This document shows positions 7,205 to 30,669 of a stretch of 32,923 bases of DNA, piece by piece (position 1 is the stretch's first letter; each line of letters opens with the position of its first letter). Location: sequence record ON470593. One strand, 5' to 3'. Below the pieces are notes generated by a model that made no database searches, was not told where the DNA came from, and worked only from the letters and a program-made list of their open reading frames with translations. The position numbers were made by a program, and so were the translations under genes. This DNA is from Escherichia phage vB_EcoM-683R1.

Positions 7205-7777
7205 ATGACTAAGAAGCTGAAAGCAAAACACGAGGTGTTTTGTCGCGAGTTTCTTGTCGATCTGAATGCTACACAAGCAGCTATTCGCGCAGGCTACGTC
7301 TCCAGGCGAGCACATGTTACGGGGGCTGAACTATACGGTAAACCTGAGATACGCGCCCGTATTAACGAGCTAAAGCAGGAGCGTATTGATCAACTGGGCA
7401 TTGATGCGAATTATGTGCTGATGCGACTGGTTGAGATCGACAGGCTCGATGTGGCTGACATCCTAGAGGACGATTTAAGTATTAAGCCTCTGTCTGCGTG
7501 GCCGGAATCGTGGCGTCGGTACCTGAGTGGATTTAACCTCGCTGAAATGTTTGAGGGGCGAGGAGATGACAGAGAAATGGTCGGGATCCTTAAAAAGATT
7601 AAGTGGCCTGATAAGGTTAAAAACCTTGAGTTGCTTGGGCGTCATGTTTCTGTTCAGGCGTTTAAAGACAACGTCAAAAATGAAGTGACTGGCGCTGATG
7701 GAGGACCAGTCAGAACAGAAATTACCAACTTAACGCCGGAGCAGGCTGCAGAGGCGTATAGAAAAATGATGGGCTAA
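7205..7777 (+). CDS. Terminase small subunit
   Basis: 190 aa; N-terminal [25 protein letters not shown] segment typical of small-terminase DNA-binding domains; directly upstream of large terminase. Confidence 0.7.
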
Positions 7778-7779
7778 GT

Positions 7780-9402
7780 ATGCCGTTACCATTCCCCTTC
7801 GATTTTAAACATCCTGATTACCAGATGGTTTTTGAATGGCGGATGGAACGCCTACAGCGCATTCGCCAGAATCCTGAAATATTGCCTGCACTAAAACAGT
7901 TTTACCGAACCAATCCGGCTCAGTTCATCATCGACTGGGGCATGACAACGGACCCGCGTAATATTGATTATGGCCTGCCGGTGACCATTCCGTTTTTACT
8001 CTTCCCTAAGCAGGAGGAGTGGATCCACTGGATTATGGAACGCTGGGGCAATCGGGAGAATGGTATTACCGAAAAATCCCGTGAAATGGGGCTCAGTTGG
8101 ACCGCGATCGGACTGGCATGTTCGCTTTGTCTCTTCAACAAAGAAATGGTTATCGGTTTCGGCTCCCGTAAAGAGGAATACGTCGACAGCACCGGTGACC
8201 CGAAAGCATTGTTCTGGAAGGCGCGCAAGTTCGTGGAAACACTGCCTGTAGAGTTTCGCGGTTCGTGGAGCGAGAAGAAGCACGCGCCATATATGCGTGT
8301 TGAGTTTCCTGAAACTGGTGCCGTTATCAAAGGCGAGGCTGGCGATAATATTGGTCGTGGTGACCGTACCACGCTTTATCTGGTTGATGAGGCTGCATTC
8401 CTTCAGCGTCCTCTGCTGATTGATGCGGCGTTGTCACAAACGACGCGTTGCCGTATCGACCTGAGTTCAGTTAACGGCATGGCTAACCCGTTCGCTCAGA
8501 AGCGTCATGGCGGGAAGATACCGGTATTCACATTCCACTGGCGGGATGATCCTCGCAAGGATGAAGAGTGGTATCGCAGGGAATGCGAGAAAATCGATAA
8601 TCCGGTGGTGGTGGCACAGGAACTTGATCTGAACTACAGCGCATCAGCGGAAGGCGTCCTGATTCCATCCGAATGGGTACAGGCTGCCGTTGATGCGCAT
8701 ATCAAACTGGGTATCCAGCCAACAGGCAAACGACTTGGCGCGATGGATGTCGCCGACGAAGGCAGGGACAAAAATGCCTTTTCCACCCGTCATGGCTTCC
8801 TCCTGGAAAATGTGCGGGAATGGTCCGGTGTGGGCAGCGACATTTATCAGTCCGTCAAGAAGGTTTTCGGCTTTTGCGAACAGGACAACCTCGAAGAGTT
8901 TCGCTTTGACGAGGACGGGCTGGGCGCTGGCGTTCGCGGCGATGCACGCGCTATCAACGAACTGCGTAACGCTGCGCGTCGACCGTCAATACTTGCCACA
9001 CCGTTTCGAGGTAGTGGCGCGGTATTTGATCCGGATGATGAAGCTGTTCGCGGGGACAACGGGCAAGCCGCACGTCTGAACAAGGACTTCTTCGCTAACG
9101 CCAAAGCCCAGAGCTGGTGGCGGTTACGTAAACTTTTTCAGAATACCTGGCGCGCCGTGGTTGAAGGTATGGCTTACAACCCGGACGAAATCATCTCAAT
9201 CAGCAGTAGCATGGCACTCAAAGATAAACTCATCATCGAGCTTTCGCAGCCGACCTATTCCATTAATGGTGTGGGAAAAATAGTTATTGATAAACAGCCT
9301 GATGGAACCCGATCGCCAAACCTTGCCGACTCGGTGATGATCAACTATGCCCCAATGAATTCAGCCCTGAACATCTGGGAGCTGCTAGGGAGACAGGCCT
9401 GA
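7780..9402 (+). CDS. Terminase large subunit (ATPase/nuclease)
   Basis: 540 aa; Walker-B-like LYLVDEAAF; position between small terminase and portal. Confidence 0.8.
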
Positions 9403-26400: not shown

Positions 26401-27194
26401 TGGCGAAAAATGACTTTAAAGCGTTTGCAACGGATCGAAATGCCAATGTTATATCGCAGGAGGAATGGGAAGCGTTGCCCGCGCTTTTATCTGGATTTAC
26501 AGCAGGGAAAGCCTCCAGTGCGCAAGTCAATAAGGTTATTCGGCAGGCCAGCTTTATTGCTGCAGCTCTGGCCCAGTTTGTAAGTGATAAAACGCAACGG
26601 GATGTGCTTGATAATGGTGATCTGCCCGGTTTTGTTGAATTGCTGGGATCGGGGTTTGCTGTTGAATACCTGAGCCGCAAGAATCCGTTTGGCGATATCA
26701 AATCGGACGGCACGGTGAAAACAGCTCTCGAAAACCTTGGTTTGGGAGAAGGTGCCCCAGCTATTGGCGTTCCGTTCTTCTGGCCGTCCGCTGCAATGCC
26801 AAATTCTGTCATCGACAGCTGGTCCGGTATGGTGTTTTTGAAGTTTAACGGGGCGAAATTTTCTGCCTCTGATTACCCTGTGCTGGCGAAAGTGTTTCCT
26901 TCGCTGGTATTACCTGAAGCCCGCGGTGATTTCATTCGTATCTGGGATGACGGGCGAGGTGCAGACGGTGGTCGCGAATTATTAAGCTGGCAGGCAGCTA
27001 CAAACTTTTCTCAGTTTGCCGGGAATATAGGCGATGGTGCGGGCCACACAATTAATTTTCATGATGGTATCGCCGGAAATCAGCCAGGATTTTCACGATT
27101 TAATTTCACCAGTAACTCTGTGGGTGATGGTGTGAATTTTGTTGCCGTCAGACCGCGAAATATTGCATTTAACTTTCTGGTGAGGGCTAAATGA
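26400..27194 (+). CDS. Tail fibre protein with switchable C-terminus (constant part fused to variable part Sv)
   Basis: Start ATG 26400 overlaps upstream stop (TGATG); tail-collar-like motifs (PFFWPS…[17 protein letters not shown]…[12 protein letters not shown]); crossover site inside the gene at about codon 113. Confidence 0.75.
26725..26750 (+). promoter_or_regulatory. Invertase crossover site L (hix/gix-like 12-2-12 site) inside the tail fibre gene
   Basis: CTCTCGAAAACC-TT-GGTTTGGGAGAA; right half-site and core identical to the inverted partner at 28547-28572. Confidence 0.7.
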
Positions 27195-27787
27195 TGACCC
27201 CAATTTTTGATGAAAATGGACTGGCTACAGTGCCGGGCGATATGCGTTGTTTTTATTATGATGCTGAAACATCTGAGTATACGGGCTGGTCTGATGAATA
27301 TATTAATACTGGCGTAAGTATGCCCGCCTGTTCCACTGGAATTAACCCTGGCGAAAACATTCCGGGAAAAGTGGCTGTATTTACAGGTAAGGGATGGAGC
27401 CATGAAGAGGACCATCGCAATGAGACTGTTTACTCAATCGAAAATGGCGCAGCTGTTACAGTGGATTATATCGGTGCCATCAAAGATGGTTATGTCACGC
27501 TTTCACCGTTAACGCCATACGATAAATGGGATGGTGAGAAATGGGTGACGGATACCGAGGCACAGCATAGCGCCGCAGTAGACGCGTCAGAAGCACAGCG
27601 CCAGTCACTGATTGATGCAGCAATGGCTTCCATTAGTCTGATTCAGCTGAAATTACAAGCCGGGCGGAAACTGACGCAGGCAGAAACAACCCGGCTTAAC
27701 GCTGTGCTGGATTACATTGACGCGGTGACGGCAACAGATACCAGCACCGCGCCGGATGTCATCTGGCCTGAACTGCCGGAGGCGTAG
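27191..27787 (+). CDS. tfa: Tail fibre assembly protein (Tfa)
   Basis: 198 aa; conserved C-terminus …[30 protein letters not shown]; ATGA-coupled to the tail fibre. Confidence 0.8.
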
Positions 27788-28199
27788 GCCATTCAATATC
27801 TGGCGCACCGGAAGTATCGACCAGTTCCAGTGCGTCCAGATAATCCAGCCACAAATTATATTGCACCAGTTCCTCACCTTTCAGGCGACCAATCGCCGCT
27901 TTACCAGGCCATTGCTTACTGTTTATGTATTCGTTGACCTGATTAATCAATTGCTGCTTTTTCAGTTCGGCTGCGGCAATTTGTTCCTCATGAGTTGGCG
28001 GTGGAATATCAATCCATGCAGGCATTCCGTCGATGACACCTCTGTATTTTCCTTCTGGTGCTTCCTTCATAAATTCGGCAGCAACAGTGTCGTCAATTTC
28101 GATTCCATCATCGGGCCATTCGCCGGATTCCTGATAAGCGATTTTAAGCTCCACAGGGAAAAACGCATTTTTATCGGCACTGAAAATATATTTCTGCAT
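27759..28199 (-). CDS. Alternative tail fibre assembly protein (Tfa'), opposite orientation
   Basis: 146 aa; conserved C-terminus …[26 protein letters not shown]; convergent with and overlapping tfa. Confidence 0.8.
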   Translation of the reverse strand: MQKYIFSADKNAFFPVELKIAYQESGEWPDDGIEIDDTVAAEFMKEAPEGKYRGVIDGMPAWIDIPPPTHEEQIAAAELKKQQLINQVNEYINSKQWPGKAAIGRLKGEELVQYNLWLDYLDALELVDTSGAPDIEWPTPPAVQAR

Positions 28200-28201
28200 T
28201 T

Positions 28202-28546
28202 CTACCGTCCTATCGAAATATAACTGAATCTGTATTGCTGTGAGATATCACTGGTTGCCACACGCCACGCTGAATTACTGATATGTTCAAAATTTACAGA
28301 CAAAACCTGCGGGGCAGGATTCGACGGGTCTGACTGAACGGCATCAGACATAACACTGACTGAAATCATCGGCTGATTAGGGAATGGTATAGGGAAGTGT
28401 CCACTGATAAAGCGGGTCGTGTTTCCTGAAAAAGTGCCAAACTGAACAATATATCCACCTGGTAGCCTGAACCATCCCGAACCAGAAGCGAATGCTCCCA
28501 TATCCGGTATCTGATTATCTCCTGTGCCCACATTCCGTTTTGCCGC
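28202..28546 (-). CDS. Alternative tail-fibre variable segment Sv' (promoterless; expressed only after inversion fuses it to the constant part)
   Basis: Minus-strand frame is open from crossover site R through TGA at 28202-28204; reads VGLGEAAKRNVGTGDN… with the core dinucleotide at codon positions 2-3, the same phase as in the plus-strand fibre. Confidence 0.6.
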   Translation of the reverse strand, partial: AAKRNVGTGDNQIPDMGAFASGSGWFRLPGGYIVQFGTFSGNTTRFISGHFPIPFPNQPMISVSVMSDAVQSDPSNPAPQVLSVNFEHISNSAWRVATSDISQQYRFSYISIGR

Positions 28547-28572
28547 TTCTCCCAAACCAACGTTTATGAAAA
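28547..28572 (+). promoter_or_regulatory. Invertase crossover site R (hix/gix-like)
   Basis: TTCTCCCAAACC-AA-CGTTTATGAAAA; inverted partner of site L; lies just upstream of the invertase start, as in Gin/Cin/Pin/Hin systems. Confidence 0.7.
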
Positions 28573-28626
28573 TGCAGAAATAACGAGCAAATGGCATCAT
28601 TCCTGCTTTTGTCAGAGGGATCCACT

Positions 28627-28941
28627 ATGCTTATTGGCTATGTACGTGTGTCAACAAATGACCAGAACACAGATCTACAACGTAATGCGCTGAACTGTGC
28701 AGGATGCGAGCTGTTTTTTGAAGACAAGATAAGCGGTACAAAGTCCGAAAGGCCGGGACTGAAAAAACTGCTCAGGACATTATCGGCAGGTGACACTCTG
28801 GTTGTCTGGAAGCTGGATCGGCTGGGGCGCAGTGTGCGGCATCTTGTCGTGCTGGTGGAGGAGTTGTGCGAACAAGGTGTTAATTTTAGTAGTTATGTTA
28901 TTACAGGTGGGGGATTTCTCCCCCTTATGCAGATTTTCTAG
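28627..28941 (+). pseudogene. Serine DNA invertase (Pin/Gin/Cin/Hin family), 3'-truncated after about 90 codons
   Basis: MLIGYVRVSTNDQNTDLQRNAL…KLDRLGRS…GVNF matches the invertase catalytic domain (active-site Ser in VRVS); after GVNF the sequence diverges (SSYVITGGGFLPLMQIF*) and the resolvase C-terminal/HTH domain is missing; DNA turns AT-rich at about 28888. Confidence 0.8.
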
Positions 28942-28945
28942 TTAA

Positions 28946-29791
28946 CTATTGGCGAAGTGGCCATATTTTTCTGTTTTTTAAAAAACTATCTTCAACTATA
29001 TAACTGCAACAATGTTCACTAAGGCCATAAAAACTAATTATTCCATATTTATGAGAAGCTATATCAGACAGTTCTGCTAATACTGTGGCAAGCCAACGAG
29101 CGATGCTAAGAGAATAGAATCTTCCCCACTTTTGAACAATGGTATTTTGTCCAGTACGGATGGAGGCTGATATAAGGTCTTGCATAATGTTGGTACTTTC
29201 ATTCATATACATGACCGTTGTATACGGTGAAAGAGTGGCATTGATAAACCTAGCATTTTCTTCAACACGTCTTTGTTCAACTGTATAATAATAATGTTTT
29301 TCAAGGATACTCTCGGCTACTTCTCCCCACCATTTATTAATAGGTTCATTATTGGTTAAATTGGGGCTGCTTAATGAGGAGAAATTTGCGTAACGTCCCC
29401 GTCGGGCATCAGCAAAGGAATCTAAACATTCAAGTATTTTGTAGGTAATTTTATGTGTAGGACGTGAATATCTCAGAGATAGTTGCATTTTTTTAGAAAT
29501 ACTATCAACCTCGTTGGTTAATTCAATGAGCTTATGTCCAAATTTTCTTACAATATTCTCATCAGGCATTTTCCCTTTGTGTTCAATGGCATAGTGTGCA
29601 ACAAGTATTAGTTTAGCAAGTCTCTCAAAACCTACAGAAAGCCCAAAAAATGCTGTGTAATATTCACCTATTTTGTCTGCATAATTGGCTTTACCTATGG
29701 CTGTTGCCCCAGAACCAATGAGCTGTGTAACTAAAGATGCTTCTCGGCCCAGAGCGTGCCATGCTGGAATATCCCAGGGATTTTTATTCAC
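28946..29791 (-). CDS. Hypothetical protein encoded in the AT-rich islet; candidate accessory/defence gene, function unknown
   Basis: 281-aa ORF, GTG start with AGGAAA RBS 8 nt upstream; low GC; located at the prophage end where cargo genes typically sit. Confidence 0.6.
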   Translation of the reverse strand: MNKNPWDIPAWHALGREASLVTQLIGSGATAIGKANYADKIGEYYTAFFGLSVGFERLAKLILVAHYAIEHKGKMPDENIVRKFGHKLIELTNEVDSISKKMQLSLRYSRPTHKITYKILECLDSFADARRGRYANFSSLSSPNLTNNEPINKWWGEVAESILEKHYYYTVEQRRVEENARFINATLSPYTTVMYMNESTNIMQDLISASIRTGQNTIVQKWGRFYSLSIARWLATVLAELSDIASHKYGIISFYGLSEHCCSYIVEDSFLKNRKIWPLRQ

Positions 29792-29918
29792 TTTATTATT
29801 TTCCTTTGCTCATAAATTTAAATTGTTTGAGTATCTCATAAAATATAAGGAGATGGTTAAGGTTGTTGATCGCATATAATAGCTATTGAAAGTCAAGAAC
29901 TCGGTTTTATGTTCTACC

Positions 29919-29959
29919 ACTAATTAATATATTGTGAGTTTGACAATATATTAATTAGT
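29919..29959. repeat. Perfect 17-bp inverted repeat with 7-bp spacer (candidate operator)
   Basis: ACTAATTAATATATTGT-gagtttg-ACAATATATTAATTAGT; arms are exact reverse complements; about 130 bp upstream of the 281-aa gene. Confidence 0.8.
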
Positions 29960-30092
29960 ATGATCAAACCAGCCATCAACTGATTCCTTGTATCTTTCAG
30001 AGTCTCCAGAACAAAAGCCTTAACGAATTCCTTATTTGTGAGTGCCTTACCAAAAGCCCATTGTTGCAGGGAACGAGTATAAAACTCGCCAG

Positions 30093-30359
30093 CTACTGGA
30101 GCAGGCTACCTGATTGTCGATCGATTCCTGCGTCCATATAGTCGATGGTCTTCTGGAGCTCTTCGATTAGGGCAATAGCTTTTGCTCGAGAAATGCATAT
30201 TAGTTGATCCGGAAATTCTTGTAAGGGCCAGTTTGGTATACAGGCCATGTTATCAGTGAAGGATGCAGACAAGTAAACTTCATTGGTAACTAGGGAATAG
30301 CTTACCTCAAAATTGGTGAGTTCCGGCAAACTGCTAACGTTTGATTCTTTTCTGCGCAT
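30093..30359 (-). CDS. Hypothetical small protein
   Basis: 88-aa ORF upstream of, and co-directional with, the 281-aa gene; no recognised motif. Confidence 0.4.
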   Translation of the reverse strand: MRRKESNVSSLPELTNFEVSYSLVTNEVYLSASFTDNMACIPNWPLQEFPDQLICISRAKAIALIEELQKTIDYMDAGIDRQSGSLLQ

Positions 30360-30669
30360 AATATTATCCAGGACTGTAATTATGTACAGTTAATGGTCTT
30401 CAATTTCGAAGAGGGAGTCAAGGGGGAGTCTCAAATGAACCTTTATAGAAAGGGGAGCTCTTTGTGTTGCTGAACGTATGCAAAATTTTTTTGCACCATA
30501 AATTCAATAACACATTCAATAACACATTACTGCATCACCATGAAAATAAATGTATTTTTATTTAATTTCACACATATCACAATTGATGCATTTTTTAGTG
30601 ATTAACAGCGCCATAAGGAAACTCTCAAAACAACACAAACCGGGCGGGCATTATACGCGCATTCTTTAC

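Follow-up and report, generated by a model that had tools for sequence, protein, structure and literature searches.

The stretch of DNA analysed here (the window) is a 32,923-nt sequence of Escherichia phage vB_EcoM-683R1 (sequence record ON470593). Between an invertible tail-fibre module and the host gene yfhH, it carries a minus-strand gene for a 281-aa protein with a predicted HEPN-like fold, a candidate single-gene abortive-infection effector (WP_001039127.1; 28946-29791, GTG start). The gene lies in an AT-rich (~36% GC) cargo cassette of 1.2 kb (28888-30077, minus strand), which fills a variable moron slot, with the tail-fibre/invertase module on one side and the conserved prophage end on the other. 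The cassette is bordered on the left by an incomplete serine invertase gene and on the right by a conserved arm of the prophage containing a second minus-strand gene, which encodes an 88-aa protein (30093-30359). The GC content falls from 0.45-0.48 over 28400-28999 to 0.33-0.38 across ~28850-30050, then rises to 0.44 over the 88-aa gene (30050-30350) and stands at 0.35-0.39 from there to yfhH. The original prediction, made from the letters alone, had described two minus-strand open reading frames (ORFs) of 88 and 281 aa and a sharp drop in composition at 28888, where the invertase leaves its family. Both ORFs are present; the GC profile bears out the drop, and the partial Pfam match bears out the truncation of the invertase.

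We compared positions 28946-30560 with 5,426 complete E. coli genomes by megablast. The full stretch was found in 44 of them (~0.8%), and ~80 more, with related prophages at yfhH, matched from 30078 onward only, at ~94% identity. In E. coli IAI1, which harbours the same prophage type, an acyltransferase gene and a 215-aa gene occupy the cargo slot instead. From this distribution, the IAI1 prophage and the layout of Salmonella phage SEN34 (see below), it follows that 30078-30567 is a conserved phage end and 28888-30077 the only variable cargo. Comparison of the yfhH-yfhL region among E. coli strains, as proposed in the original prediction, thus defined the ends of the insert, and the AT-rich islet that had been treated as one unit splits at 30077/30078.

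Among E. coli alleles of the 281-aa gene, synonymous and non-synonymous codon differences stood at 4:0, 9:3, 3:1 and 4:0; one IMG/VR contig carries a frameshift in the gene. As the differences are mostly synonymous, the gene is maintained by purifying selection. The protein belongs to a large family, with 486 relatives in a 90%-clustered collection. Those at 56-74% identity come from Enterobacterales, Vibrio, Halomonadaceae, Marinobacter, Methylocella and Acetobacteraceae. An exhaustive HMMER search yielded 788 family clusters at 50% identity, nearly all of 265-290 aa, and GTDB species representatives added Sphingomonadales, Rhizobiales, Paraburkholderia, Mycobacterium paraense, Nitrospinota, Gemmatimonadota and Mailhella. 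Such a patchy spread is typical of horizontally transferred accessory genes. The window protein has no match in Pfam, PADLOC, NCBIfam or PHROGs, and 91 divergent relatives gave nothing but weak HEPN matches in the same four libraries. PADLOC-DB 2.0.0 returned zero families at E values up to 1 for both the 281-aa and the 88-aa ORF, a result consistent with an undescribed system, and WP_001039127 is unmentioned in the literature searched, the DefensePredictor supplement included.

An alignment of the 91 divergent members, with identity down to 26%, revealed six residues that are invariant in 91/91 sequences (E17, E56, R57, K60, H86 and W154). R133, Y134 and R232 are conserved in 90/91, and position 82 is R or K in all but three sequences. 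A survey of HEPN domains (PMC3710099) describes an Rx4-6H motif and a second conserved acidic residue in helix 2, 'typically as part of an Ex3[KR] motif'. The latter feature is present in the family as E56-x3-K60 (91/91), within the second long helix (residues 43-70). H86 comes after this helix, at the start of the next one, and R133-Y-x-N136 is found in a flexible loop past helix 114-128. The canonical Rx4-6H is absent from all 91 members, the nearest approaches being [RK]82-x3-H86 and R133-Y-x-N136, the latter without a His 4-6 residues further on. According to the same survey, the motif His has also been lost from AbiV- and AF0298-type domains, in which an alternative conserved His comes from an insert between helices 2 and 3. 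The motif arrangement predicted for the 281-aa family is the same as in these domains, and its R-Y-x-N loop recalls the disordered motif region of AbiV crystal structures.

The AlphaFold2 model of the 281-aa protein is confident (predicted local distance difference test 83.7, predicted template-modelling score 0.84) and all-helical save for a small hairpin and a loop; the conserved R-Y-x-N sits in the low-confidence loop 130-148. The core of the model is a four-helix up-down bundle that superposes on solved HEPN domains, which the predicted fold resembles best. The highest score in these structure comparisons was obtained with the HEPN domain protein 4nqf (9.3), followed by YutE (1ylm, 7.1), AF0298 (2hsb, 7.0), the HEPN-like domains of two nucleotidyltransferases (2pbe, 6.9; 3jyy, 6.6), an HEPN toxin (5yep, 6.5), the sacsin HEPN domain (3o10, 6.4), AbiV (9bj5, 6.2), Csm6 (8jbc, 6.1), HepS (9oik, 5.3) and an HEPN protein from an integron cassette (3jrt, 5.2). 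Profile searches against PDB sequences found nothing, and a Foldseek search of the PDB found nothing significant. Two signals, independent though weak, agree with an HEPN-like fold: Pfam HEPN_AbiV matched 2/91 members at E 0.002 and PADLOC CARF_HEPN_mCpol matched 2/91 at E 0.003, both below threshold.

Relatives of the 281-aa protein recur beside or inside defence systems and in hotspots of mobile elements. The ORFs surrounding 61 non-redundant homolog loci were called and clustered. Only three neighbour families recurred; they occur together in 10 of the 61 loci and correspond, by Pfam, to HsdM, HsdS and HsdR of type I restriction-modification (R-M) systems. Their order is hsdM-hsdS-(optional ORF)-X-hsdR, where X stands for the 281-aa homolog, all on one strand and with stop and start codons abutting or overlapping. 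The ten loci belong to different alpha- and gammaproteobacterial genera (Nitratireductor, Bradyrhizobium, Mesorhizobium, Acidocella, Aurantiacibacter, Novosphingobium, Erythrobacter, Qipengyuania, Robiginitomaculum and a Rariloculaceae genome). Two further homologs lie beside type I R-M genes, in Enterobacter (hsdM-hsdS-hsdR-X) and in Agrobacterium (a type I R-M set on the opposite strand). When the two nearest ORFs on each side were assigned to Pfam (229 ORFs), type I R-M domains came top, followed by the YoeB toxin (3), CAP12/Pycsar TIR (2) and Abi_C (2), with singletons making up the remainder.

Other homologs are found in mobile elements. The Enterobacter copy belongs to an integrase island that combines the type I R-M genes with HNH, Vsr and DUF4917 genes, and the Klebsiella copy lies at the end of a lambdoid prophage. 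In Morganella, the homolog is inserted in a P2-like prophage between the tail-fibre assembly and sheath genes (G-FI slot), which we take to be the Z/fun slot of the P2 map. The Vibrio vulnificus homolog is a superintegron cassette with flanking attC repeats, and the Motiliproteus homolog is likewise a cassette with flanking attC. In Serratia, a P2-like prophage carries the gene between gpA and the portal gene gpQ, beside a PvuII R-M system; this gpA-gpQ slot is a known defence hotspot of P2-like prophages (Rousset et al. 2022, PMC9122126). A richness in small anti-phage genes has recently been shown for chromosomal integron cassettes (bioRxiv 10.1101/2024.07.02.601686).

Several further observations were made on these relatives. 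In the type I R-M operon of Acidocella (locus L060, 5291-6025), a gene for a CAP12/Pycsar-type TIR effector lies between hsdS and the 281-aa homolog, and three other R-M operons have an unassigned ORF of 204-230 aa at the same place. The Acidibrevibacterium homolog is a single-gene insert with ~75-bp direct repeats (locus L012, ~7700-7980 and 8990-9090), directly downstream of a tRNA-like sequence, and looks like a minimal island remnant. In Klebsiella, E. coli and Salmonella, ~130 conjugative plasmids of IncX type carry a distant relative of 273 aa (WP_001576903.1), with 33% identity over residues 17-175 of the 281-aa protein and with a resolvase and a DinQ-like toxin close by; plasmid pE001 (NC_019067.1; locus L091, 3968-4789) is an example.

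Our preferred reading, to which we give a probability of roughly 0.55, is that the 281-aa protein is a latent HEPN-type endoribonuclease (RNase) that acts in abortive infection or superinfection exclusion and that the prophage carries as a moron. The observations behind it are the fold, motifs, selection and context described above; for dimerisation, RNase chemistry, latency and trigger we reason by analogy with PrrC, AbiV, HepS and Tha. The protein would dimerise like other HEPN domains and form a metal-independent RNase site from its conserved residues. It would be silent in the lysogen and be switched on by an infecting phage: the trigger could be the loss of the restriction complex for the relatives embedded in R-M operons, as for PrrC, and some phage product for the solo copies. 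The activated protein would cut tRNA, rRNA or mRNA, of the cell or of the phage, and translation would stop. Infection would then abort and the lysogenic population would be protected. The 281-aa gene appears to work as a single gene: it has no conserved prophage partner, and elsewhere it is found by itself in an integron cassette as well as in P2 hotspots. The original prediction of a single-effector defence locus is supported as regards an inserted single-gene cargo whose fold and the company of whose relatives point to defence, and is not supported as regards the 88-aa gene, which is excluded from it.

Several observations weigh against this reading. As strict Rx4-6H is missing, catalysis is predicted rather than assured, and some HEPN domains without it, for instance MtlR and nucleotidyltransferase-linked domains, may bind without catalysing. 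Many homologs stand alone among housekeeping genes, and the window copy adjoins no R-M system, being solo in its prophage. Only 9 IMG/VR contigs carry the family, and the defence families of PADLOC do not include the 281-aa protein. In a rival reading, the protein is an HEPN-like adaptor or regulator without catalysis, such as an accessory subunit that binds RNA or protein and modulates type I R-M enzymes, the solo copies then acting on a resident R-M system of the host or having another regulatory role. We consider such an adaptor unlikely. The six polar or aromatic residues that stay invariant down to 26% identity, among them the E-x3-K pair and the His, suggest a chemistry beyond binding, and solo cassettes of the family flourish in hosts and elements that have no R-M system next to them.

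The latent RNase that we favour has a precedent inside type I R-M operons. In the prr locus of E. coli (hsdM-hsdS-prrC-hsdR; Anantharaman et al. 2013, PMC3710099), the restriction complex keeps the HEPN anticodon nuclease PrrC silent until phage T4 inactivates restriction, and at least 16 HEPN clades have been linked to R-M systems. Relatives of the 281-aa protein share with PrrC the slot between hsdS and hsdR and an HEPN-like fold, and the expected logic is the same, that of a latent RNase forming a second line of defence behind restriction. However, PrrC has an N-terminal ABC-ATPase domain and ~400 aa, whereas members of the 281-aa family have ~280 aa and lack both the ATPase and Rx4-6H. No P-loop or ABC domain was detected in the all-helical 281-aa protein with any of the libraries searched, and no sequence similarity was detected between PrrC and the family. 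The embedding in type I R-M operons that characterises PrrC/RloC is seen in ten relatives, whereas the window copy is solo in a prophage. More tentatively, the family could be a minimal, ATPase-less counterpart of PrrC: an HEPN-only guard of ~280 aa watching over the integrity of type I restriction complexes, whose solo forms in prophages, P2 and integrons sense a phage product directly and whose non-canonical active site (E-x3-K, [RK]-x3-H and R-Y-x-N) replaces Rx4-6H. On this view, the E. coli prophage would carry in it a defence gene so far undescribed, with a palindromic control site of its own. This fuller scheme is possible, and we hold it as a doubtful extension.

Other systems resemble the 281-aa gene in their setting. 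HepS of the Gifsy-1 prophage and Tha of S. aureus prophages are prophage-encoded single-protein HEPN defences with canonical motifs that are triggered by tail proteins, and no sequence relationship to the 281-aa family was detectable for either. Like the window, the old/tin and Z/fun moron slots of temperate P2 (PMC9122126) hold variable AT-rich cargo of one or a few genes at fixed positions. Both P2 slots are occupied by 281-aa homologs in other prophages and the P2 old/tin and Z/fun proteins are unrelated; the slot of the window differs in that it belongs to a SEN34-like myovirus and lies between the tail-fibre module and attP. Esos, from the V. cholerae superintegron (Darracq et al., bioRxiv 10.1101/2024.07.02.601686), is a single-gene cassette of demonstrated anti-phage activity, with an HEPN-like domain only, that causes growth arrest on infection, and the 281-aa family is likewise found in Vibrio integron cassettes; the two were compared by description only. 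With 3 sequences, the family's V. cholerae member is rare, which argues against its being an N16961 cassette. On these comparisons, in which Esos enters by its description alone, the 281-aa family appears to be an undescribed HEPN-like family within the established class of RNase-based abortive-infection genes.

If this is true, ~790 clusters that are unnamed in curated libraries would join the anti-phage repertoire of Proteobacteria, Actinobacteria, Nitrospinota and others, with an HEPN active site departing from Rx4-6H. The family would also offer a compact case for how a sensor-less HEPN nuclease stays silent and then fires, and its R-M-embedded and solo copies make the PrrC-style idea of a restriction guard directly testable. 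An unannotated accessory gene of ~0.8% of complete E. coli genomes would be explained, and both the 88-aa gene and the disruption of yfhL are clarified as ordinary prophage anatomy. As a defence candidate, the 281-aa gene is in our view well supported, easy to test and unusual in its motif set, and it brings no new principle.

The non-coding DNA upstream of the 281-aa gene in the E. coli cassette (29792-30077, 286 nt) contains a perfect inverted repeat at 29919-29959, whose 17-nt arms (29919-29935 and 29943-29959) are separated by 7 nt and which lies 128-168 nt ahead of the start codon. The 17-bp palindrome reported in the original prediction is therefore real: the longest arm in 200 shuffles of the region was 11 nt. 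In three alleles that are ~97% alike, all 34 arm positions are identical and 3 of the 7 loop positions vary. The full palindrome is absent from all GTDB species representatives and is found in IMG/VR only in the same prophage family. The half-site has no second copy in the window, immunity region included. The palindrome is a non-random feature confined to the E. coli cassette. It may be bound by a dimeric regulator upstream of the promoter, or may form a hairpin in DNA or RNA.

Other interpretations of the palindrome were discarded. A shared operator does not fit a half-site that is unique in the window and a full site limited to one prophage family. A known RNA or a terminator was set aside, as the palindrome has no match in Rfam, is followed by no U-tract and was uncalled by the terminator scan. 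Nor is it equipment of the whole family, nothing comparable being conserved upstream of homologs in other genera. A gix/pix-like invertase site at 29896-29907, beside the palindrome, shows 2 mismatches, a match no better than chance would give; the true crossover sites are located elsewhere (26732-26751 and 28546-28565).

A hairpin in upstream non-coding DNA brings to mind AbiV of Lactococcus (PF18728; PDB 9bj5), an HEPN RNase of ~200 aa that needs, and is neutralised by, the upstream non-coding abiV2 RNA, in which it binds a small hairpin (bioRxiv 10.1101/2024.05.05.592566). By analogy, the 281-aa gene could be mainly an addiction module, similar to toxin-antitoxin modules, that stabilises its carriers and whose RNA antitoxin, transcribed from the upstream non-coding DNA, is bound at the 17-bp hairpin. 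The conserved arms and variable loop of the hairpin would agree with this, as would the folding of the upstream region, which is somewhat better than that of shuffles (z -2.5), and the abundance of toxin-antitoxin modules in integron arrays and islands. However, the only stretch shared with the upstream regions of homologs from other genera is the ~25 nt that surround the ribosome-binding site and GTG start, and no sequence or structure of an abiV2-like partner is conserved family-wide. Space for such an RNA is moreover short in some copies: Enterobacter has 85 nt between hsdR and the gene, and R-M-embedded copies abut or overlap hsdS. The upstream region has no match in Rfam, and the best promoter-like site is downstream of the palindrome, which it would leave untranscribed. 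We therefore regard an addiction module as improbable, and an RNA partner, if any, may be specific to the E. coli cassette.

The predicted working of the 281-aa protein as a latent RNase effector resembles that of R-M-linked and Abi-type HEPN proteins, and the family falls within neither PrrC/RloC nor AbiV. Besides the conserved upstream element, which it lacks, it differs from AbiV in its length of ~280 aa and its extra C-terminal helical part. Its members stay below the gathering score of PF18728, the window protein giving no hit and the best of the 91 relatives reaching E 0.002.

The promoter-like site mentioned above is a candidate sigma-70 promoter (TCAACA-16-TATATT, 29842-29869, minus strand) ~50 nt upstream of the GTG start. 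It scores 9/12 against the consensus and is weak evidence, such sites being no commoner in the region than in shuffles in the consensus scan. Downstream of the 281-aa stop codon, at a distance of 22 nt, is a G+C hairpin of 6 bp with a 4-nt loop (GGGGGA-TTTC-TCCCCC). The original prediction had noted this repeat at 28908-28923; it is present, one base further on, at 28909-28924. Most homologs have some hairpin 20-40 nt past the stop, those in Enterobacter, Serratia, Klebsiella and Motiliproteus with differing sequences, and that of the window is probably the 3'-end hairpin of the cargo transcript, although the terminator scan did not call it. The 57 nt from the stop to the break at 28888 contain only this 6-bp hairpin, and R''/R' attC core sites were not recognised there by reading.

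On the other side of the cassette, a minus-strand frame of 57 codons without a stop (29924-30095) stretches from the end of the 88-aa gene across one of the palindrome arms; no ORF of at least 40 aa is found in it, and it may be a remnant of earlier cargo. The 88-aa gene itself adjoins attP in the circular phage. Its protein matches PHROG 17793 (function unknown) at E 5.8e-46, and relatives are restricted to prophages of Escherichia, Salmonella and Citrobacter and a few phages. In E. coli IAI1 the ORF is intact at ~95% nucleotide identity (locus L002, 6016-6282), unannotated in RefSeq there and in many genomes.

In the original prediction, the 88-aa and 281-aa ORFs and the palindrome made up one two-gene defence locus with its own operator. 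The two ORFs are indeed adjacent, on the same strand and alike in being AT-rich, with the palindrome in between. Their distribution contradicts the proposal, which we judge very improbable. The 88-aa gene is ~94% identical in ~80 E. coli genomes whose prophages bear different cargo, and SEN34 has an 88-aa homolog (83% identical) beside attP and the integrase gene. None of the 61 homolog loci has a relative of the 88-aa protein as a neighbour, and no such cluster emerged from the neighbour analysis. The break of homology at 30077/30078 falls, furthermore, between the two genes. The 88-aa gene is thus a conserved backbone gene of SEN34-like phages, present whatever the cargo and independent of it.

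The right end of the prophage was delimited by alignment to K-12. Host homology covers the right-hand edge of the window and stops at 30567, 48 nt inside yfhL (whose start is position 2664 of the compared K-12 locus, L005), leaving at the attR junction a yfhL remnant made of the first 48 nt of the gene (30567-30614, minus strand). A genome whose locus is identical has an intact yfhL ~42 kb away (locus L093, 7207-7467), beside a tyrosine integrase gene, at attL. As host homology stops at 30567 and intact yfhL is found ~42 kb off, the window left of 30567 is prophage. These alignments show that a ~42-kb prophage is integrated into the 5' end of yfhL, and that yfhL has been regenerated at attL, the ferredoxin gene being displaced rather than lost. 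With 48 nt of yfhL at attR and an intact copy at attL, the replacement 5' end comes from the phage. The absence of yfhL from this side of yfhH had been taken as a sign of inserted material: the window indeed has no yfhL ORF, and the insert is the whole ~42-kb prophage, with yfhL intact at attL.

Integration in yfhL, the tyrosine integrase and the gene order of Salmonella phage SEN34 mark the prophage as SEN34/Brunovirus-like. In circular SEN34, a temperate Brunovirus, the order is tail fibre, tail-fibre assembly, O-acetyltransferase, small gene, 88-aa homolog, attP and integrase. The cargo had been placed by the original prediction in an e14-like position; it does lie in a slot beyond the tail-fibre/invertase module, in a prophage of SEN34/Brunovirus type integrated in yfhL. 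The resemblance to e14 and Mu is limited to the invertase/tail-fibre module.

In this module, the invertible tail-fibre segment (26732-28565), which lies outside the cargo, is still flanked by its 20-nt crossover sites (26732-26751 and 28546-28565), an inverted repeat with 95% complementarity at which alignments to related prophages end precisely. The adjacent plus-strand ORF (28591-28941) encodes a Pin/Gin-type serine invertase and matches Pfam Resolvase at E 1.5e-28, over profile positions 2-98 of 145 only. In identical genomes, RefSeq labels it 'recombinase family protein, incomplete, missing C-terminus'. Read against the sequence of e14 Pin, the last homologous codon is codon 87 (28885-28887), in agreement with the predicted break at 28888. 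The N-terminal 87 codons (28627-28887) are followed by an out-of-family continuation of the ORF to 28941. The 3' half of the invertase gene has been replaced by the cargo insertion. With the enzyme cut off after codon 87, the tail-fibre segment is probably frozen, unless a Pin/Gin-type enzyme of another prophage works in trans.

The conserved right end of the prophage (attR arm, 30078-30567, minus strand) contains, upstream of the 88-aa gene, two tandem direct repeats, one of 2 x 11 nt (AAGAGGGAGTC / AAGGGGGAGTC) at 30409-30430 and one of 2 x 12 nt (ATTCAATAACAC) at 30502-30525. These may be arm-type sites of the integrase or sites for host factors. The GenBank 'phage genomes' vB_EcoM-606R2 and -611R5 contain the host genes tadA, pgpC and yfhH (for example ON470579.1, 1-2254); such records are prophage regions plus host flank rather than packaged genomes. 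ON470579 and ON470588, with tadA-pgpC-yfhH inside, were consequently rejected as isolated phages and were left unused as evidence of a functional virion. Finally, the early region of the same prophage, outside the window (locus L093, 12378-13139), encodes a TIR-domain protein beside DNA polymerase, SNF2 and VRR-NUC genes; this may be a further gene for defence or counter-defence.

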